Shown: one piece after another, positions 10,412-25,337 of the stretch
How the letters are laid out: every line of letters starts with the position of its first letter
How positions within the stretch are numbered: position 1 is the first letter of the stretch
From: a virus
Taxonomy: Duplodnaviria; Heunggongvirae; Uroviricota; Caudoviricetes
Strand: one strand, 5' to 3'
DNA: 25,337 nucleotides
IMG/VR virus record: IMGVR_UViG_2698536560_000009
Coordinates: 1-25,337 of that record
The notes under the pieces: model-generated
Told to the model about the DNA's origin: nothing
Databases searched by the model: none
What the model saw: only the letters and a program-made list of their open reading frames with translations
Program-made: the position numbers and the translations under genes

Positions 10412-12554
<2,143 letters not shown>

Positions 12555-16981: not shown

Positions 16982-17010
16982 GTTAGGGAATCGGATTTGT
17001 TGGAGTGTTT

Positions 17011-17514
17011 ATGAATCAGAAGCTCATCCAAACAGTCATTTCTGAGTGTCATCGTATAGAAGAGGACGCTCTTTACTCTTCTAAATCTCATTATAATGTT
17101 TCTGATAGATGGGATAAGCTGAATCTGTGGTTCGGTGTACCATTAGCAATCTTAACCGCTTTGAGTGGTATTGCCGCAATCAAGAGTACAGCCAATGCTG
17201 TTGTAGCTATTTCCATAACTGCTACAATTCTAACTGCATTAAATACGTCTCTTAACCCAAGTAAGCGTGCTGCACTTCATAAATCAGCAGCAAATGAATA
17301 TAATAAATTAAAGAATGAAGTTAGAATATTTAGGGAAATATTGACTTCTAATTTTGATTTTACTGATAAAACTTTGATTGAAAAACTTACGAGTTACTCT
17401 GATCGACGCAATCAACTTAATTCAAGTTCGCCAAATATTCCTCGGTGGGCTTATGAGAAAACTCAAAGAGATGTTAACCAAGGCTTTACTAAGTATAATA
17501 TTGACAAGGAATAA
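17011..17514 (+). CDS. SLATT-like two-transmembrane effector protein
   Basis: 167 aa from the ATG at 17011 (GGAG 6 nt upstream; the ORF track begins at a GTG at 17005). Two adjacent hydrophobic helices (LWFGVPLAILTALSGIAAI and AVVAISITATILTALNTSL) are flanked by short soluble regions. The stop lies 2 nt before the NTase start. The family call rests on architecture and on the SMODS neighbour. Confidence 0.45.
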   Translation: MNQKLIQTVISECHRIEEDALYSSKSHYNVSDRWDKLNLWFGVPLAILTALSGIAAIKSTANAVVAISITATILTALNTSLNPSKRAALHKSAANEYNKLKNEVRIFREILTSNFDFTDKTLIEKLTSYSDRRNQLNSSSPNIPRWAYEKTQRDVNQGFTKYNIDKE

Positions 17515-17516
17515 AC

Positions 17517-18293
17517 ATGACAGTCAGTACCTATCTTGAGTCTATTAAAAGCAATGCTTATCAAAGAGATATTACAATAACGAATTCAATTGCAACCATA
17601 AAAAACAGACTGAATGGTTATTTTGCTGGTGAACTTGTTAGTCATTTTGTATTTGGCTCATATTCACGTAATACAATGCTTCCTCGTAGCTATGATCCTT
17701 CTTCTGATGTTGATTATATGGTTGTATTCAAAAATGTAATATATCAGCCTCAGACCTACCTAAACAAGCTAAGGGGTTTTGTAAATTATTACTATCGTAC
17801 ATCTGAAATAAAGCAAAGCCACCCTACTATTCAATTGAACCTTAATCATATTACTTTCGAGCTTGTCCCTGCATCTCATAATATTTTATTTGGTTATCAA
17901 ATCCCTTCCAACCAGGATTTTTTGAACCGTTGGATGAATACCGATCCCAATGCGTTCAATACTGATTTAACTAATTGCAATAAAAATAATAACAATTTAA
18001 TTAAGCCTCTTATTCGCATAATGAAATATTGGAATGCCAATGCAGGTTATGTCTTTGAGTCGTATCAACTTGAAAAAGATATTGTTAGCTTTAACTATTT
18101 TTGGTGCTCTACCCTTAAAGAATATTTTTACTCTGCTGTAGAACAACTTTCAGGTTCCTATTATCTCGCACAATGGAAAAAAGATAAGATTCAGCGTCTA
18201 AAAAATTCAGTTATGATGTCAAAATATTATGAGCAGTTAAACAATCATTTTGCCGCCGAAAATGAAATAAAGAAAATTTTACCCATAAAATAA
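17517..18293 (+). CDS. SMODS / CD-NTase-like nucleotidyltransferase (Pol-beta superfamily)
   Basis: 258 aa. Carries the GS-x15-DVD signature (FGSYSRNTMLPRSYDPSSDVDYMVVF), a downstream acidic ITFELV, and a LIRIMKYW motif like the OAS/cGAS-type helix. AAGGA Shine-Dalgarno 8 nt upstream. Confidence 0.6.
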   Translation: MTVSTYLESIKSNAYQRDITITNSIATIKNRLNGYFAGELVSHFVFGSYSRNTMLPRSYDPSSDVDYMVVFKNVIYQPQTYLNKLRGFVNYYYRTSEIKQSHPTIQLNLNHITFELVPASHNILFGYQIPSNQDFLNRWMNTDPNAFNTDLTNCNKNNNNLIKPLIRIMKYWNANAGYVFESYQLEKDIVSFNYFWCSTLKEYFYSAVEQLSGSYYLAQWKKDKIQRLKNSVMMSKYYEQLNNHFAAENEIKKILPIK

Positions 18294-18298
18294 TCTTG

Positions 18299-18326
18299 CC
18301 CCCTTATATTACTAATTATAAGGGGG
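18299..18326. terminator. perfect 10-bp stem hairpin immediately after the NTase gene
   Basis: cccccttata - ttactaat - tataaggggg, starting 6 nt after the stop at 18291-18293. A U-rich tract follows on the minus-strand side, so it may act bidirectionally. Confidence 0.4.
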
Positions 18327-18540
18327 TACAGCTCATTGTCTTTGCTTGAATCCAAAAAATCATTCTCGATATTTTTACTTGTAAGAATTGAGTACAGTTG
18401 AAACATTCCACCGTCGTACAGCTAAATGAGATTGCTAAGATTGTATGACCCGCTCCTCTACCATCAGTATCAGGAGATTACATTCCCTTATCGCTAAAGA
18501 TAGCAGTTTTGTGAGAAGAGATAGTTTCCAATTTCTAATT

Positions 18541-18567
18541 TATAAGCCAGTTAGTTGCTGGCTTATA
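18541..18567 (-). terminator. hairpin 4 nt downstream of the tail-anchored protein gene
   Basis: tataagccag - ttagttg - ctggcttata, a 10-bp stem. There is no clear U-run. Confidence 0.3.
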
Positions 18568-18571
18568 ATCA

Positions 18572-19246
18572 TCATGATTTAACAGATACTAATGCCAGAA
18601 TAGATGCTACTGCGGCAGCCAACGAAACTATAAGACTTAATGTAGGTATATATAATGCTGTAACTCTTCTAAACTTGTTCTCTTTGTCGTTATACTGAAT
18701 AAAAAACATCTTAATTTTCAGTAAGCGGATTAAAATTAAATCTTTTAATGCGGCCTTGTGTAAAACACCTGTAACACGGTGATAATGAAGTAAATTCTTT
18801 ACTGCTTTCTCTATTTTTTTTGGTGTTATGTGTTTAACGTTATATGAATGATGGACAATCAAGGAATCATGTGTTGCTAATGAATCATCTGAAGTAGACG
18901 GAAAAAGAATTATATGCACAGCCCCCGTCGCACTATATGTAATTGAAAGTGCGGCTCCTTTTTGCCAATGATGATTAAACTTTATGCTTTCGGTAGTTTT
19001 TTCCTGCCGCATATTTCCAGTCATACGATCAGCGATCTGAAATGTCAGGCAATCAAAACCATAACCATCTGGTTCATCTTGCATATCAATTATATTAAAT
19101 CTTATATGCTCTCCTGATAATTGGGTTGATAGTATTTCTAATTGCTTTTTTATTTTAGGTTTGAATATAATCCAGTTTACATTAGAAATTAATCTTCTAA
19201 GTTCGTCTCTTTCAAACTTTGCTCTAAGCTCTTTCTTCCACTCCAT
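18572..19246 (-). CDS. hypothetical tail-anchored membrane protein
   Basis: 224 aa with a GGAG Shine-Dalgarno and ATG at 19244-19246. A soluble His-rich domain is followed by a single C-terminal transmembrane helix (LYIPTLSLIVSLAAAVASILALVSV). Sits alone on the minus strand between hairpins. Confidence 0.5.
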   Translation of the reverse strand: MEWKKELRAKFERDELRRLISNVNWIIFKPKIKKQLEILSTQLSGEHIRFNIIDMQDEPDGYGFDCLTFQIADRMTGNMRQEKTTESIKFNHHWQKGAALSITYSATGAVHIILFPSTSDDSLATHDSLIVHHSYNVKHITPKKIEKAVKNLLHYHRVTGVLHKAALKDLILIRLLKIKMFFIQYNDKENKFRRVTALYIPTLSLIVSLAAAVASILALVSVKS

Positions 19247-19569
19247 TATCTCCCCCTAAGCCTCTTGCTACTATAGATTATTTAGATTCTATCGTACCAT
19301 AATTGATAAACTTACCCTAGGTCGATAATCAATAGTATATGTATGTTCTATTTGGTGGTAAAGTGTTAATGCTACATGGTATAGGCTATAATGATGATTA
19401 CTCATAAAATCAATTCTTATATCGATATTTTCAGTTTATTATCGCAGTTTGAGTATTCGTCCATGTATAAGTTTGCATAAAAAATAGCACACTGGTTAGA
19501 GTAAAATCATATTGAACATTGTGTTTGAATGCTCTATATTTTGGTGATGTTAACTTTTGAGATTGCAGA

Positions 19570-20373
19570 ATGAAATTTGTCTCTGAAAGAATTGACCATG
19601 TAAAAATAGCTAATGGATATTGTGTAATATGTGGTAATTTTGGCAAATTAAAAAAAGACCATGTTCCCCCGCAATGTGCATCTAAACCTTCACCTATGTT
19701 ACAAAAAACGATTTCTGAGTATTTCTCTAATACTCGAGTACCACCAATTAAAGCAAAAAGCGGGACAACTTTTCGTACCATTTGTCACAATTGTAACTCG
19801 AATATTTTAGGATCAATGGATGCAGAAATAGGCCGTGTTACAACTGAATTCATCGAAAAGTTAAATGATTATTTTAGTGGTAAGTTCTTTTACAAAAATT
19901 ATATTTCATTAAAATTTGATGCGGATAAATTTCTAAGAGCAATGATTGGACACCTTCTGGCTGCAACTTCAGTAAAAGATTGTATGAAGCCTATTGTTGA
20001 TAGTCCTTTTTATACTCCATTGAGAAATTTTGTATTAGGCAGGAATCCAGACATTGGGGCAACTCATAATATTTACTATTGGTTTTATCCATTCAGAAAA
20101 CAAATTACTGCTCAGTCAGTTACATTCTACAATAATGGACATCATAGTATATGTTCTTGCTTACATTTTTTCCCAATATCTTTTTTGGTTACACTGAAGG
20201 AGCAAGGAACATTTCCTATTCATGCAACTGAAATGACTCAATATGATCAATCTCTTCATTTTAATATGACAACGGCTAATATTGATTATGCTTCATTTCC
20301 CTTTGTAGGTTTAAAGAATAATCAATTTATGATGGTAATTTCTGGTCATACTTGTGTTAGTTATCCTAAATGA
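19570..20373 (+). CDS. HNH-motif (His-Me finger) nuclease-like protein with uncharacterised C-terminal domain
   Basis: The N-terminus contains C-x2-C ... DH ... C-x2-C-N (CVICGNFGKLKKDHVPP ... TICHNCNSN). The spacer is longer than in the canonical HNH motif. The C-terminal ~180 aa are unrecognised. Confidence 0.5.
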   Translation: MKFVSERIDHVKIANGYCVICGNFGKLKKDHVPPQCASKPSPMLQKTISEYFSNTRVPPIKAKSGTTFRTICHNCNSNILGSMDAEIGRVTTEFIEKLNDYFSGKFFYKNYISLKFDADKFLRAMIGHLLAATSVKDCMKPIVDSPFYTPLRNFVLGRNPDIGATHNIYYWFYPFRKQITAQSVTFYNNGHHSICSCLHFFPISFLVTLKEQGTFPIHATEMTQYDQSLHFNMTTANIDYASFPFVGLKNNQFMMVISGHTCVSYPK

Positions 20374-20400
20374 TTTTCAACTAAAGGTTGAGAAATATAG

Positions 20401-20445
20401 ACATAAGAACATAAGAACATAAGAACATAAGAACATAAGAACATA
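20401..20445. repeat. tandem octanucleotide repeat (ACATAAGA) x 5.6
   Basis: acataaga x5 then acata, in the intergenic region between the HNH gene stop (20373) and the next gene (20591). Confidence 0.9.
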
Positions 20446-20457
20446 GTCCAACTGTTC

Positions 20458-20519
20458 AGCGACACGTCCCACACACACCAACTAAACAAACCTACCCTTT
20501 ATGAGTGGGGCGTGTCGCT
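20458..20519. repeat. GC-rich inverted repeat with 15-bp arms (one mismatch) and a 32-nt CA-rich spacer
   Basis: agcgacacgtcccac (20458-20472) pairs with gtggggcgtgtcgct (20505-20519); the spacer is acacaccaactaaacaaacctaccctttatga. Confidence 0.8.
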
Positions 20520-20590
20520 AATAGTTTACGCCAGAATGGTTATTATGGTAAAGTTCATTTTTCACTTTGATATATTGGATTTCTAAAAAA

Positions 20591-21142
20591 ATGGAAGCTG
20601 AAACCATTACACAACTCATTGCAGTCGGTGGTACTTTAGGCGGTGCATTAATAGCTGCGGGTGTAACATTGGCAAGCCAATTAATCACTAAAAAATATGA
20701 GAACGAAAAACTAAAAAAACAACTTTTATTCAAAATACTCGAAGATGAATTAAAAGAAAAAAAGCAAACTATTAAACCTTTCATTCAGTTTATTAATTCT
20801 TTGAATCTTCCAGAAAATTTTAATTTTTATGATGATGGTGATCTTTTAGATCAAATTATGCTTTATAAACAGGATTTAATTAAAAGTAAAGCAAGTGACT
20901 TCCTTCTCGATTATACATTATACATGACACCACAAATTCACGATGCGATTTGGACGGTTACTAATGCTATAAATGATTTTGAAGAATTGGGAGCACGGTT
21001 TTATGATTCATCATTGAGTAAACAAGAAAACGATGAAATATTACTTAGAAATTGTAGCGGTAAGCCAACTGAAATTTGGGAAGCTTTGATGAAATTGAAA
21101 GGCTTGCTCTATAGTGAAGTTAACATAGCTGATAAATTATGA
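20591..21142 (+). CDS. hypothetical membrane-anchored coiled-coil protein
   Basis: The ORF track starts at a TTG at 20567; the first ATG is at 20591. An N-terminal transmembrane helix (LIAVGGTLGGALIAAGVTLASQLI) is followed by a K/E-rich helical domain. The stop overlaps the next gene's ATG as ATGA at 21139-21142. Confidence 0.5.
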   Translation: MEAETITQLIAVGGTLGGALIAAGVTLASQLITKKYENEKLKKQLLFKILEDELKEKKQTIKPFIQFINSLNLPENFNFYDDGDLLDQIMLYKQDLIKSKASDFLLDYTLYMTPQIHDAIWTVTNAINDFEELGARFYDSSLSKQENDEILLRNCSGKPTEIWEALMKLKGLLYSEVNIADKL

Positions 21143-21840
21143 ATATAAAAACTATAAACTCTACTCTTGTCGGCATTGTTGCAGTACTTCTGTTTTTAGC
21201 AGTCTTAGTACTCGTTAAGGTTCTATTCGCTGGTAGCAGGGGGTTTGAATGGGGGAACGCAGCTGATTTAACAAGTGCGTTATGCAATATCGTGATTGCG
21301 TCTACAGCTCTTTGTGCTGCTTTTGTAGCAAATAATTGGTTCGTTCAGAATAAAAAATTAAAATCCCTTTCTACCTCACATCAGTTGGCTATGAAATTTG
21401 AGATGCAGTTATGGGAAATAAATTCACGTTTATATAATGATGGTATAGTTCGTGCTTCCATCAGGAAATATGTTCAGGATAATAAAGAACTGACAGATGA
21501 AATAAAATCTAAAGTTGCTGCTGAAATTAATAAAAAGGCCACAAGTGATTTATCTGAACTTGCTAAGCTATATACGACAAGGTCAATGCTAGCCAGGTTT
21601 GATATTAAGTTAAGCGAACGGCTTGAAAATTTATTTAAAAATATATTAGAGTTAAGGCAGTCATATTTAGACAATCAATATATATATCTATTGACCATAT
21701 GCAAACATATTAATTGCCCCAAGCATGAGGACGTAATTGCAGCTACAGAAAATCTTGAAAGTGTTAAAAGAGAGCTAGCTGCCATATTTCAGTACGAGCT
21801 ATGTGAAACAAATATTGATACTGATTATTCGTTCAGCTAA
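21139..21840 (+). CDS. hypothetical 2TM membrane protein (paralog A)
   Basis: 233 aa with an N-terminal hydrophobic hairpin (LVGIVAVLLFLAVLVLVKVLFAGSRGFEWG, then LCNIVIASTALCAAFVANNWF) and a soluble C-terminal domain. The N-terminus is about 35% identical by eye to that of the 22818-23561 protein. Confidence 0.5.
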   Translation: MNIKTINSTLVGIVAVLLFLAVLVLVKVLFAGSRGFEWGNAADLTSALCNIVIASTALCAAFVANNWFVQNKKLKSLSTSHQLAMKFEMQLWEINSRLYNDGIVRASIRKYVQDNKELTDEIKSKVAAEINKKATSDLSELAKLYTTRSMLARFDIKLSERLENLFKNILELRQSYLDNQYIYLLTICKHINCPKHEDVIAATENLESVKRELAAIFQYELCETNIDTDYSFS

Positions 21841-21877
21841 ATTTATAGTTAATTGATGTAAATAAAAAGGAAAGCTT

Positions 21878-22699
21878 ATGCTTGGGGAGTCATTTAATCA
21901 ATTCATGGTAGAGTCTTATTTGTCCAGTACCTCAATAGGTGGTGGGCTTACTGCTGTGCGGAAATGTAGAGCACATGATAAAGGTAGCTTCTATAGCAGC
22001 TTCTTTCAATTATCAATTGGCATAGAAAGGTTTTTTAAGATTATCTTCATACTCAATCATATGATCGAAAATAATCTTGAGAAGCCAGACTTCCGTACAC
22101 TTAAAAAATTCAGCCATAATATTGCGGAGCTTCATAAAAACTGTTCAAGCTATGGTGCTAGCCATTTACCCAATTTGGAGTGGGAATTAAACTGGCAGCA
22201 AAACCTCATATTAGAAATGCTTTCTGAATTCGCTGATGCTTCAAGATATTATAATCTTGATAAAATTGTAAAAGGCAAAAAAGAAGTCAAAGATCCGTTA
22301 GCACAGTGGAACGAAATAATTAATTCTTGCTTCCGTAAACACATTACTGATTCTAGAAAACAAAAACTAGAAAGAGAATTAAATTTATGGGCCGACAAAT
22401 ACAAAGCATACGGTTACACCTGGAATAGAGGTCTTGATGGTGCGATTTTAAGCCAAATTGATGAGTATATACTTTCCTGGAAAGTAATAAACGTTTCACC
22501 TTATATTGTGTTTGAAATCATTGATATGTTGCAGCCTTATTATTATCTAATTTCTAAATTTAAAGATGATATTGACAACATTGAGCACAGTAAAGGGATA
22601 AGAGAACCTCTGGTTCCATATCTCCATGAGATATTTGTATTTCTACTTGTCCATAAGAAGTTAGCTTTGAGTAGAAAAACATGGAGTTTCCGTTATTAA
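21878..22699 (+). CDS. hypothetical soluble protein flanked by the two 2TM paralogs
   Basis: 273 aa with an AAGGA Shine-Dalgarno and ATG at 21878. An R-x4-H (RKCRAH) motif lies near the N-terminus, but no confident family assignment is possible. Confidence 0.45.
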   Translation: MLGESFNQFMVESYLSSTSIGGGLTAVRKCRAHDKGSFYSSFFQLSIGIERFFKIIFILNHMIENNLEKPDFRTLKKFSHNIAELHKNCSSYGASHLPNLEWELNWQQNLILEMLSEFADASRYYNLDKIVKGKKEVKDPLAQWNEIINSCFRKHITDSRKQKLERELNLWADKYKAYGYTWNRGLDGAILSQIDEYILSWKVINVSPYIVFEIIDMLQPYYYLISKFKDDIDNIEHSKGIREPLVPYLHEIFVFLLVHKKLALSRKTWSFRY

Positions 22700-22735
22700 T
22701 TACATGGACATGTATCACATTATTAATCAGAGAGG

Positions 22736-22753
22736 CACTAATCATGATTAGTG
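22736..22753. promoter_or_regulatory. 18-bp perfect palindrome cactaatcatgattagtg, candidate operator upstream of 2TM paralog B
   Basis: Perfect dyad in the 118-bp gap between the genes at 21878-22699 and 22818-23561. Confidence 0.35.
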
Positions 22754-22817
22754 GAATATATATCCATCAATGCTACATATATACATCTATGTCTTTTATT
22801 TAAGAAATGAGATTAAC

Positions 22818-23561
22818 ATGCTTAATATTAAAAAATATAATTTAATACTACTAAGTACCGTACTATTACTGCTGCTAATTGCTATATTAGTTGGTGTAAA
22901 AATATTATTTTCTGGTTCGAAAGGATGGGAGTGGGTAACTTTAATTGGAACATTATGTAGTGCTGTAGGTACATTAGGTACACTATGGGTAGCCTACCAA
23001 GCATACCTAAAAGCACCTGAATGGTTGTCGCAAAAACATTATGATGTAGTATATGGTGTTATTGAGAAAGCAATTTATCAAGATCTTAATAAAGTACGTA
23101 CTTCAACCTTAATTTTAAAACATCAATTAGTGACATTCTCCAAAAAATATCGCAATCATTTAAAAAACGAGACCATACCCCAAGATTCACATGATGAGTT
23201 TATGAAGGAAACAGATGCTCTTGTTTCCGATTTATTCTTCACTTCTTACTCCGTTATTAATTCCTTAAAATCTATTGATAGAACTAATTATGCTTTAAGC
23301 GAATACACAAAAAACATTATTGCTGAACTTAAATTAAATATTGATGAATATAACGGACTGAGTATCGATTTCTATATTGCAAGTTCTGAGGTTCCTGCAC
23401 TTATACAGGCCGATGAATGTGTGAGGGATCAAACTAGTAGTGAGCTTTTCGTTATACAGTCAAAAGCAATTTCACTTCACAATAAGATTTCATCTTTCAT
23501 AAAAGATATATATGATGATAACTATCCAATTGATAACTTCATAACTCTAAAGAAAAAATGA
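22818..23561 (+). CDS. hypothetical 2TM membrane protein (paralog B)
   Basis: The likely start is the ATG at 22818 (MLNIKKYNLILL...); the ORF track begins at 22770. The N-terminal hairpin LILLSTVLLLLLIAILVGVKILFSGSKGWEW matches paralog A (shared VK.LF.GS.G.EW). Confidence 0.5.
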   Translation: MLNIKKYNLILLSTVLLLLLIAILVGVKILFSGSKGWEWVTLIGTLCSAVGTLGTLWVAYQAYLKAPEWLSQKHYDVVYGVIEKAIYQDLNKVRTSTLILKHQLVTFSKKYRNHLKNETIPQDSHDEFMKETDALVSDLFFTSYSVINSLKSIDRTNYALSEYTKNIIAELKLNIDEYNGLSIDFYIASSEVPALIQADECVRDQTSSELFVIQSKAISLHNKISSFIKDIYDDNYPIDNFITLKKK

Positions 23562-23730: not shown

Positions 23731-23912
23731 GAATAAATTTCTATTAGTAAATCTCTGTGTAGATTAGTACTAGGTAGTTCTTGCAATAATTGTATGTTAT
23801 GCTTTTCAATTACTTGATAACCTAGCTCTAGTACTTCTACAATTCCTTTTTTAAAATCAAACTCATAGATGTACTCTCCATAGTTATGGTGTATAAAATT
23901 GACGCCTTTCAT
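23712..23912 (-). CDS. hypothetical small protein (second gene of coupled pair)
   Basis: 66 aa with a GAGGA Shine-Dalgarno 7 nt upstream. Its ATG overlaps the stop of the 103-aa ORF as ATGA at 23909-23912. Confidence 0.4.
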   Translation of the reverse strand: MKGVNFIHHNYGEYIYEFDFKKGIVEVLELGYQVIEKHNIQLLQELPSTNLHRDLLIEIYSKHQMQ

Positions 23913-24220
23913 TCGTAGTCCTCACTTATTTTATTCATTTGTGTTTGAATAATAATTAATCGATTAATGTCGATCTCTGTTTGCAGTGCTAAGCTTGCTT
24001 GGAATAGTTCTGATTCACTCATCCTAGATAGATCAGGTGTTTCATTTATTTGAGTACCATCAATCTTCTGATGATAGAATTGTAGTCCTTCTCGTTGCAG
24101 TACTACACGTGTTGGGTGATTAAAGTAGACAATCTGATCCGTGAATACTGTCATAGTACTGTGATCCTCATACGTGTATCGGTGAAACAGATCATACTCT
24201 TCAGTTTTTAGTAATTTCAT
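23909..24220 (-). CDS. hypothetical small protein (first gene of coupled pair)
   Basis: 103 aa with an AGGA Shine-Dalgarno 9 nt upstream of the ATG at 24218-24220. No transmembrane segment and no recognised motif. Confidence 0.45.
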   Translation of the reverse strand: MKLLKTEEYDLFHRYTYEDHSTMTVFTDQIVYFNHPTRVVLQREGLQFYHQKIDGTQINETPDLSRMSESELFQASLALQTEIDINRLIIIQTQMNKISEDYE

Positions 24221-24329
24221 TTTTATTATCCTCTGTAGTACTGGTATTTATTAAAAAGGTGTGATTCTATAATAAAGGCCAGTTTATTTTCATAGTCTAA
24301 TGGGTATACACAGACTCCCTACTCACTTT

Positions 24330-24690
24330 CATTTCCTCATAGTATGCCTCTCGGTGGCTTGTGTGTTGCGTATTCATCCGGCGGTGCGGCTTCACACTTT
24401 AATTAATTAAGTTCCTAGCTAGTATGGGTAGTGGTTCACTTTAGTGAGCTTCAACAGCGAACGACCCAAACAAGGGAGTTTACGACCGCGTAGTACTCAC
24501 GAATACTTTAGACCGTAGGTCGACCCCAAATACTTTATTAATCACTTTGGTGAGTACATGGGGTTTGTTTGAGCGAAAGCAAGTAAAGGACTTGCTCGAC
24601 CTGAAAGGGCGAAAGTCTGGTTATAAATTCTAAGATCAAAGGCGAGCTTGCGAGGTTTTGATCTTCGGACTTCAGTCCATTTTATATGTG
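24330..24690 (+). ncRNA. GC-enriched structured non-coding segment (candidate ncRNA or late-transcript leader)
   Basis: No convincing ORF. Contains several local stems, including aagatcaaa/tttgatctt, agcaagt/acttgct, gtactcac/gtgagtac and two GCGAAAG (GNRA-type) hairpin loops. Strand and class are undetermined. Confidence 0.2.
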
Positions 24691-24707
24691 TTATTATATT
24701 ATAGTGT

Positions 24708-24719
24708 TCCATTAATGAA
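24708..24719. promoter_or_regulatory. operator-like palindrome copy 1 (tccattaatgaa, one mismatch)
   Basis: Imperfect copy of the TCCATTAATGGA dyad. Confidence 0.3.
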
Positions 24720-24782
24720 GTAAAATTCACAATTTCAACGGTAGAATGCGGGTTTCAAGCCATATATGTTGGAATATAACAC

Positions 24783-24794
24783 TCCATTAATGGA
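24783..24794. promoter_or_regulatory. operator-like 12-bp perfect palindrome TCCATTAATGGA (copy 2)
   Basis: Perfect dyad, 41 bp from copy 3. Confidence 0.4.
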
Positions 24795-24823
24795 ATAAAA
24801 TCTCTATTAGTGGATTAACTCAT

Positions 24824-24835
24824 TCCATTAATGGA
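24824..24835. promoter_or_regulatory. operator-like 12-bp perfect palindrome TCCATTAATGGA (copy 3)
   Basis: Perfect dyad, 14 nt from the stop of the 162-aa ORF. Confidence 0.4.
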
Positions 24836-24848
24836 GTTAAAAAATGCT

Positions 24849-25337
24849 TCATTTACCATCAATGAAACCCTGTAGAATAATAATTAGTTCCTCTGCTGAT
24901 GCTCCGCTATCATGTGCGTTTGCTAACGTCTCATAGAACTGTTTGTTGTCTATGTAGTGCATTCCGTCCTTTTGCACTTTGAATAGCTTCACTTTGCGTT
25001 TATGTGCTGCTATAAGAGCTTTTGATACTGCGGTTGCTACACGCCTTACCTTTACTGCGGTAGATTCACTTACACGTTCCTGAACTTCTTTTATATGATA
25101 GTCCTGGTAAAGATGTAACCTGGCTAAAACTTTCTCAGTACTGAATGTGATCAAATTGAAAACGATGTAATAGATCTTAAATCCACTATATGGCTTACCG
25201 TTACCCATTGGGACTGATGCTATTGCTTCATCAATTATCTGTTTTGCTTCTGGTGTAAGATCGTTGTCATAGTCTCCAAAATTCCCCGCAATGCGTAGGA
25301 ATGGTGTATTGTCGTAATCTCGTGCTTTATTTGCCAT
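24849..25337 (-). CDS. hypothetical protein (possible regulator; start coincides with window edge)
   Basis: 162 aa ORF whose ATG is at 25335-25337, exactly at the window end, so the true start could lie beyond the window. Stop at 24849-24851. Followed by a region with three TCCATTAATGGA palindromes. Confidence 0.4.
   Translation of the reverse strand: MANKARDYDNTPFLRIAGNFGDYDNDLTPEAKQIIDEAIASVPMGNGKPYSGFKIYYIVFNLITFSTEKVLARLHLYQDYHIKEVQERVSESTAVKVRRVATAVSKALIAAHKRKVKLFKVQKDGMHYIDNKQFYETLANAHDSGASAEELIIILQGFIDGK

Follow-up and report, generated by a model that had tools for sequence, protein, structure and literature searches.

Evidence for a conserved structured RNA outside the Rfam 15 families, beside a repeat array and a helical-protein gene in prophages of Enterobacterales

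The window, by which we mean the whole stretch of 25,337 nucleotides that was analysed, derives from a low-GC (~33%), siphophage-like prophage with host flanks of 51% GC. The exact sequence is also present in the chromosome of Escherichia coli strain N61 and in many draft genomes. The N61 prophage is ~36.5 kb long and lies between yggS and yggR (NZ_AP028880.1 792624–828900), with a large serine recombinase at one end. It contains the integrase, a full virion module and lysis-like genes, and no repressor, cro, antiterminator or replication gene is recognisable in its 36.5 kb. The late genes, terS, terL, portal, capsid and tail, are encoded on the minus strand of the window. A DNA-level search of phage records returned nothing resembling the prophage and no match for the element described below, in either the window's version or that of a Yersinia relative; the large terminase of the closest isolated phage is merely 34% identical. 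The major head protein of 613 residues (10713–12554, minus strand) has profile matches to phrog_617, phrog_4523 and phrog_80 (major head protein and head-protease fusions) and, judged from these, may be the product of a fused protease-capsid gene. Just past the end of the window, an HNH_3 endonuclease gene (L007 13195–13332, minus strand) is truncated to 45–78 residues in N61-type phages and full length (~160 residues, with an AP2-like tail) in relatives (L025 12259–12759 and L106 1956–2435). Together with a GIY-YIG SegE-like endonuclease gene near the lysis genes, it points to several homing-endonuclease remnants in these phages. The features that frame the segment of interest are as follows.

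17005–23561, plus strand: cargo island inserted between the RNA module and terS
17005–18293, plus strand: type I CBASS pair heading the cargo island, a SLATT/2TM effector (169 aa) followed by a SMODS oligonucleotide cyclase (258 aa)
23909–24220, minus strand: ORF of 103 aa, phrog_13866 (E 5.6e-7), with a good ribosome-binding site
24221–24848: gap of 628 bp between the called minus-strand ORFs of 103 and 162 aa
24849–25337, minus strand: gene of a 162-aa all-helical protein, convergent with the RNA and its constant neighbour

An earlier note, made from the letters of the window, had described part of this gap as GC-rich, non-coding and packed with stems. The first two points are borne out. The GC content is 0.45 at 24300–24599 as against 0.29–0.34 in the flanks, and the ORFs inside the gap (36 aa on the plus strand; 62, 33 and 32 aa on the minus strand) are all short and unconserved; RefSeq has no annotation in the gap in three matching E. 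coli genomes. The stems require a more qualified statement. The folding energy of the window sequence alone is no better than that of dinucleotide shuffles (z of −0.98 on the plus and −1.68 on the minus strand), so that one sequence cannot prove structure and the proof must come from covariation in relatives, which does uphold the hairpins. Both GCGAAAG strings that had been read as GNRA loops are present (24573–24579 and 24609–24615), but only the first is a conserved GNRA hairpin. The hairpin CCUGAAAGGG occupies 24600–24609. Single-sequence thermodynamics was rejected as evidence of strand, the z-scores being mixed and the strand difference mostly gone after control for composition. A small hydrophobic plus-strand ORF (24300–24410) was considered as a type I toxin and discarded: it has no start codon in locus L008, a 7-nt indel breaks its frame, and it is missing from other subgroups.

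Relatives were traced by means of conserved blocks, by DNA pattern scans and by way of the neighbours of the 162-aa protein family, and the element is present in about 20 distinct prophage loci from at least eight genera of Enterobacterales. A distant BLAST search against E. coli genomes identified two more prophages (FDN-24/FDN-9 and AREA_C483) of the same layout and partial similarity, and alignment with these reveals invariant blocks alternating with hairpins that have changed on both arms. The pattern of the invariant core led to further copies in IMG/VR and in metagenomes, where the scan yielded two real loci. The same type of scan in species-representative genomes gave 43 matches, all attributable to chance and none element-like by BLAST, and relatives sought in IMG/VR through close flanking proteins were not found. 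Further loci, in Enterobacter, Klebsiella, Serratia, Edwardsiella, Yersinia, Pantoea and Kluyvera, were reached through homologues of the 162-aa protein, and in every one of them a gap of 400–730 bp follows the protein gene. The RNA, the repeats described below and the protein gene always travel together, and the loop and junction sequence of the RNA is far better conserved than the flanking proteins, which are 35–45% identical.

The setting differs among these phages. The Edwardsiella, Yersinia and Pantoea loci (L099–L104) have the element directly 3′ of a gene for a CI-like repressor (HTH_3 + Peptidase_S24), on the same strand; a leaky-looking terminator lies between cI and the RNA, and a Cro-like gene diverges from cI. 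The FDN-24 prophage, like that of N61, has no recognisable replication, cI or cro genes. The Yersinia module is accompanied by a tyrosine integrase beside the SRP RNA gene ffs; elsewhere the module is found with a serine recombinase and is inserted at yggS, ybhA, yeaG or another site. The occurrence of one protein–repeats–RNA module alongside different integrases, at different sites (L100 294–390 and 500–1558; L107, L099 and L098), points to exchange of the integration cassette as a module.

The conserved element is somewhat larger than the segment first noted (24330–24690), since similarity to the closest relatives begins at AAAGGYCAGTTTATTT and stops at the terminator. Its parts are listed here.

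24275–24686, plus strand: candidate non-coding RNA of ~410 nt, 43% GC in a phage of 33% GC, defined by alignments, covariation and the lack of an Rfam match
24317–24398, plus strand: 5′ domain, from alignments of relatives, a 32-nt block followed by GC-rich hairpins
24440–24523, plus strand: central domain, optional in the family, with the nearly invariant core AACAGCGAACGACCCAAACAAGGGAGTTTACGACCGCGTAG
24563–24668, plus strand: 3′ domain, common to all members (match to covariance model CM R1 of 74 bits, E 6e-14)
24573–24580, plus strand: hairpin X, with the GCGAAAGC loop, part of the 3′ domain
24588–24593 with 24613–24618, plus strand: hairpin C, GGACUU paired with AAGUCU, with apical CCU-GAAA-GGG at 24600–24609
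24619–24631, plus strand: U-rich linker between hairpins C and D
24632–24641 with 24656–24665, plus strand: hairpin D, with apical C-GA-GC-loop-GC-GA-G at 24643–24654
24667–24686, plus strand: intrinsic-terminator-like hairpin GGACU-UC-AGUCC (24667–24678), then AUUUUAU; equivalents are called in L087 and L095

Across the family the total length of the RNA is 240–480 nt and its GC content 0.43–0.48. The 5′ domains differ between subgroups; the 32-nt block of the window, CCCTACTCACTTTCATTTCCTCATAGTATGCC (24317–24348), is identical in L008 and almost so in L096. About half of the members have an almost invariant central block, AACAGCGAACGACCCAACAAGGGAGUUUACGACCGCGUAG, and a possible helix of GUGAG (24444–24448) with CUCAC (24496–24500) may enclose the central domain. 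The hairpin at 24511–24521, GACC-GUA-GGUC, which lies outside the covariance model, is represented in relatives by five different Watson–Crick stems (GACC/GGUC, GGAC/GUCC, GGUAC/GUACC, GCCC/GGGC and GGCC/GGCC). The boxA-like GCUUUAACAG was tried as a NusB/E site and rejected: it contributes both loop and stem to a small hairpin, which in relatives has a longer stem and a variable loop.

RNAalifold applied to a plain MAFFT alignment failed to recover the hairpins because the helices are out of register there, a difficulty that was solved by a hand-drawn structure and realignment to a covariance model. This model, CM R1, describes three hand-drawn hairpins (X, C and D) of the 3′ third and was built from nine sequences. 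It detects one copy in every relative and two tandem copies in the Kluyvera-type phage, with E values of 1e-25 to 1e-5, and each copy falls in the gap just downstream of the gene for the 162-aa homologue, on the opposite strand. The Kluyvera-type copies of the 3′ domain share one intergenic region (L105 3130–3252 and 3316–3426; L106 likewise). Among 20 distinct sequences, standard pairs make up 84% of the pair cells, compared with 37–48% when the partners are slid by 1–3 columns, and 22 of the 31 pairs exhibit double changes (12 of 14 in hairpin D alone), values attained in none of 500 shuffles; the alignment that was counted had been fitted to the model, which favours the structure, and the slid controls and the raw sequences still agree. 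The compensatory changes to which the earlier note had looked for a decision are thus present. We conclude from this comparison of sequences that the RNA family exists and that its 3′ domain forms hairpins kept by compensatory changes.

The strand, which the earlier note could not assign, can now be called. The modelled pairs include 54 G.U as against 19 A.C (30 against 8 on a smaller set), in an alignment whose fitting to the plus strand favours G.U. In L008, L096 and L025 the apical stems contain internal U.G pairs that would become A.C mismatches on the opposite strand, the loops GAAA, GAUA and GUAA are of the GNRA type on the plus strand alone, and the hairpin and U-tract at the end of the element read as a terminator on the plus strand. 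The G.U excess, the GNRA loops, the terminator and the position behind cI together identify the folded strand as the lysogenic strand, which is the plus strand of the window. Rfam 15 (4227 models, including c4, RNAI, GOLLD, ROOL, HEARO, group I and II introns, ribozymes and riboswitches) gives no match at gathering thresholds anywhere in the window. At E values up to 10, the region 24150–24900 yields only chance matches to miRNA and snoRNA models, outside the core of the element, the element in 10 relatives has no match at E ≤ 0.1, and ARAGORN finds no tRNA or tmRNA in the window. A literature search by topic and by sequence strings returned no description of the RNA. We hold it highly probable that the element is a genuine, conserved and structured RNA, that it is read from the plus strand and that its family lies outside Rfam 15. 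The candidate non-coding RNA of the earlier note, to which no family could be assigned then either, proves by covariation to be conserved, structured and non-coding.

Could the same conservation reflect no RNA at all, but a decayed coding sequence or a pure DNA site for packaging, recombination or binding? The ACTTT and AGTAC motifs and the nearby palindromes could be protein sites on DNA, and small ORFs do occur in the region. Such a reading is nevertheless scarcely credible: compensatory changes preserve the hairpins as the sequence changes, entire hairpins are replaced by different hairpins, and the G.U pattern is strand-asymmetric. Degraded coding sequence, which the earlier note had named as an outcome that would count against it, is contradicted by indels that are not multiples of three and by ORFs that are unconserved in relatives. 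Furthermore, the element is 7 kb from terS, and the cI-type relatives have cI, cro and early genes before the packaging genes.

Two roles suggested earlier do not survive consideration of the location. A late-transcript leader by analogy with lambda pR′-tR′ conflicts with the strand of the RNA, which is opposite to that of the late genes (terS to tail, minus), and with the situation in relatives, where the element sits in the integrase/immunity region directly behind cI. The neighbours of the element in the window phage have no Q-like domains. An attachment-site remnant derived from an RNA gene is at odds with a position ~3.3 kb inside the integrase-proximal end of the prophage and with the absence of likeness to tRNA or tmRNA; moreover, the same place is kept in relatives integrated at yggS, ybhA, yeaG or by ffs.

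The most distinctive feature of the RNA is a hairpin motif, C-GA-GC-loop-GC-GA-G, that occurs three times per molecule. Its two G/A positions are constant while the flanking pairs co-vary (GC/GC to CC/GG, for example), a pattern that fits tandem sheared G.A pairs, and the loops of the repeated hairpins are GAAA, GAUA, GUAA, CUUG or AAA. The strings ACUUU, AGUAC and GCGAG are enriched 6–8 fold over shuffles. These repeated elements, the U-rich linker that separates the hairpins, and loops and junctions far more conserved than the flanking proteins would suit an RNA acting in trans from the lysogen, whether as an RNP scaffold, a sponge, a ribozyme-like RNA or a defence or anti-defence RNA, with any antisense overlap incidental; the adjoining defence hotspot, which holds CBASS in the window's case and, in relatives, genes of the OLD family, lends itself to the same idea. 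We consider a trans-acting role unlikely, if worth keeping in view. The binding partner is putative, no ribozyme family matches, and the motifs of the RNA stay the same while the apparent DNA specificity of the neighbouring protein changes. The most shared single-stranded block, AAUCACUUUG, searched for trans targets in the window, has no more matches than expected by chance. The hotspot itself is recognised from the other cargo that relatives carry at this site, such as OLD-family ATPase/TOPRIM genes. Since the defence cargo varies or is missing (L087 and L091) while the RNA stays, the RNA is no part of those defence systems; it marks the edge of the hotspot and so helps in annotating these prophages.

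Two promoter-like motifs bear on how the region is transcribed.

24268–24273, plus strand: TATAAT, candidate −10 element of the RNA's own promoter, from reading of the sequence and not called by the consensus scan
24703→24698, minus strand: TATAAT in the context GGAACACTATAATAT, candidate promoter that would fire into the RNA region, antisense to the RNA

The consensus scan calls no plus-strand promoter in either the window or L087, and the −35 element available to the plus-strand candidate is weak (TATTTA, 24245–24250). The 5′ end of the RNA and its promoter are guesses. Back to back with the plus-strand TATAAT lies a minus-strand TAGAAT (24269→24264), which from its position may serve the 103-aa ORF. 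That ORF, to which PGAP gives no annotation in the identical N61 sequence of RefSeq, is downstream of the candidate antisense promoter at 24703→24698, with a second promoter-like site nearer to it.

At the 3′ end of the RNA, the hairpin at 24667–24678 followed by AUUUUAU is terminator-like, in keeping with the earlier guess of a terminator here; it was missed by the terminator scan on account of its 2-nt loop. Its 5′ arm is able to pair instead with the U-rich linker upstream of hairpin D, generating an alternative helix, and the two computed conformers are 3–5 kcal/mol apart. Reading of the sequences of the window, L087, L091 and L095 reveals compensatory changes in both helices. The GGAACACTATAATAT −10-like motif is conserved in L087, L091 and L095. 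The corresponding promoter site is called in L095, and L105 has a promoter-like site that is similarly placed and oriented; none is called in the window or L087, in the former owing to a poor −35 element. The candidate start point is ~5–10 nt from the 3′ end of the RNA, so that the two transcripts would overlap along the full RNA. Beyond the RNA, the minus strand carries genes in the window and in L087, L091 and L095. In the cI-type relatives the convergent promoter would face antisense cI and have no gene of its own downstream, and an early leader is therefore not a universal target.

This arrangement raises the possibility that the minus-strand transcript is the functional one, serving as a long structured 5′ early leader in, for example, nut/put-like antitermination or attenuation. 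On the minus strand, the −10-like element by the repeats is directed into the region, and genes lie further downstream in the window and in L087, L091 and L095; single-sequence folding, too, gives this strand z-scores no worse than those of the plus strand. The comparative evidence nevertheless makes such a leader very unlikely. G.U pairs outnumber A.C pairs (54 to 19) in the covarying helices, and the U.G pairs of L008, L025 and L096 become A.C; the loops would be UUUC, UAUC and UUAC rather than GNRA; the hairpin and U-tract read as a terminator on the plus strand only; and the Edwardsiella, Yersinia and Pantoea relatives have no downstream gene there, only antisense cI.

Beyond the terminator lie the repeats and the gene for the 162-aa protein.

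24709–24837: array of palindromic sites resembling protein-binding sites, from reading of the sequence
24709–24722: repeat copy TTCCATTAATGAAG
24785–24796: repeat copy TCCATTAATGGA
~24808–24818: degenerate repeat copy
24824–24837: repeat copy TTCCATTAATGGAG

The palindrome TCCATTAATGGA occurs in 3–4 copies in 24709–24837, and a conserved stretch, GGTAGAATGCGGG...CATATATG, lies between the repeats. Other subgroups have TCCGATAATGG, TCGCATAATG or TCGCAAGATG as the repeat sequence, the change being in step with the adjacent protein. Because they vary in parallel, the repeats and the neighbouring protein of 156–174 residues look like a cognate protein–site pair, and the 162-aa protein is a candidate binder of the repeats of the window (TTCCATTAATGGAA sites). 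It belongs to no Pfam, PHROG or PADLOC family, and a good AF2 model has weak fold matches only, its helical modules being weakly SANT/SLIDE-like. A hairpin, GUUUCAUU..AAUGAAGC followed by AUUUUUU (~24872→24840, minus strand), overlaps the end of the gene and is likely to be the terminator of the unit running from the integrase to the 162-aa gene; it was missed by the scan because its stem contains only two G-C pairs, and its L087 equivalent was called. With the protein gene having a terminator of its own, early genes downstream need a new promoter.

A repeat array beside a candidate binding protein also invites comparison with a replication origin, in which the RNA would be a primer or an origin-activating transcript and the 162-aa protein would bind the repeats as iterons. 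The N61 prophage, 36.5 kb in length, keeps the module although no replication gene, repressor or cro is recognisable in it; the 3′ end of the RNA adjoins an AT-rich segment and repeats whose sequence changes along with the adjacent protein; and RNA, repeats and protein are always together. RNA-based prophage replication origins are known in mycobacteriophages (PMC7157519) and provide a precedent. An origin is in our view distinctly unlikely, however, as the RNA ends in a terminator-like hairpin ahead of the repeats, there is no Rfam match of the RNAI/ColE1 type, the protein is small, weakly SANT/SLIDE-like and unlike known initiators, and the element is integrated by a serine recombinase, not maintained as a plasmid. 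For many of the phage genes no function is assigned, and an unrecognised replicase may be among them.

The best explanation of these observations is that window positions 24275–24686 encode, on the plus strand, a structured RNA of ~400 nt that had not been catalogued before. It is one of three components of a module conserved in a little-known lineage of temperate, siphophage-like prophages of Enterobacterales, the others being the gene for the 156–174-aa helical protein, with which the RNA is convergent, and the repeat array that changes with this protein. The RNA probably helps to control the phage early genes. We suggest that the lysogen would produce it, either from a weak promoter belonging to the RNA or by transcription continuing from the unit upstream, and that it would run head-on to the promoter beside the repeats (−10 at 24703→24698), stopping at the hairpin 24667–24678, just short of the opposing start point. 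The opposing transcript would then be the full-length antisense of the RNA and, in the window phage and in relatives without the central domain (L087, L091 and L095), the early-gene leader. The RNA would probably keep the early unit off as a countertranscript, by antisense pairing, by transcriptional interference through polymerase collision, or by both, and its 3′ end would switch between the terminator and the alternative helix. A plain antisense RNA needs no invariant loops, tandem G.A motifs or optional, near-invariant central domain, and pairing may accordingly not be the main activity; the invariant loops and thrice-repeated C-GA-GC...GC-GA-G hairpins suggest docking of a conserved, probably host, factor. 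The combined reading, of a lysogeny-strand countertranscript that opposes the repeat-side promoter, has a regulated terminator and binds a conserved factor, is one that we favour tentatively, at slightly less than an even chance. It is doubtful that the RNA represents a new class of large structured RNA, ribozyme-like or the core of an RNP, that with the repeat-binding protein constitutes the replication origin or the lysis–lysogeny switch of a prophage lineage whose N61 and FDN-24 members have no recognisable repressor, cro or replication gene. If that were true, an RNA would take over a task that usually falls to phage proteins.

The RNA is a constant component of this module in temperate phages of E. 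coli, Klebsiella, Enterobacter, Serratia, Yersinia, Edwardsiella, Pantoea and Kluyvera, and classical repressor or replication genes seem to be missing from some of these phages. In the Enterobacterales, the best-studied bacteria, it is rare to find a structured RNA several hundred nucleotides long that has clear covariation, and if this one controls early transcription or replication, it would add a new kind of RNA-based control to phage lysogeny.

Several known systems offer points of comparison. Like ColE1 RNA II and the RNA-based origins of mycobacteriophages (PMC7157519), the element is a structured RNA of several hundred nucleotides by an AT-rich, repeat-bearing region, in a phage without recognisable replication proteins; unlike them, it has no sequence or family match to such RNAs, appears to end before the repeats and is part of an element that integrates. 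With GOLLD and ROOL (PMC12286853) it has in common that it is a conserved structured RNA borne by prophages, of unassigned function, GC-richer than its surroundings and furnished with GNRA loops. It is about half their size or less, matches neither in Rfam, is found in Enterobacterales rather than Lactobacillales or similar hosts, and has a fixed place in a regulatory module. The lambda pR′-tR′ leader (6S RNA/qut) is, as is predicted here, a short non-coding transcript of a temperate phage that ends at a terminator, but in relation to the late genes the present RNA has neither the right strand nor the right position, no Q-type gene adjoins it, and its structure is conserved far beyond the needs of a leader. 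As regards riboswitches and attenuators, mutually exclusive terminator and antiterminator helices are computed for the 3′ end, and no regulated gene lies downstream on the same strand: beyond the RNA the plus strand holds the repeats and then the antisense of the 162-aa gene and the integrase operon, with no conserved ORF.

Attenuation in pT181 and pIP501, prgQ/Anti-Q of pCF10, and pR/pL of coliphage 186 are countertranscript or convergent-promoter switches. The proposed arrangement resembles them in its face-to-face units overlapping the whole RNA, in its alternative 3′ helices and in a terminator that adjoins the candidate opposing start site. It differs in having no homology to them, a much longer overlap and structure selected on the countertranscript itself, and its attenuation target is putative. 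Finally, the phage antisense and small RNAs P4 CI RNA, P1/P7 c4, P22 sar and lambda OOP are 60–80 nt long, consist of one or two hairpins and act by simple complementarity. The element described here, at 240–480 nt, is by contrast modular, with invariant loops and tandem-GA hairpins and a putative antisense target in cis, and it matches neither the c4 family nor any other in Rfam. The likeness that we propose is one of place and orientation: these RNAs lie, as does the present one, on the repressor side of the immunity region, oppose or overlap an early transcript, and end at an intrinsic terminator.
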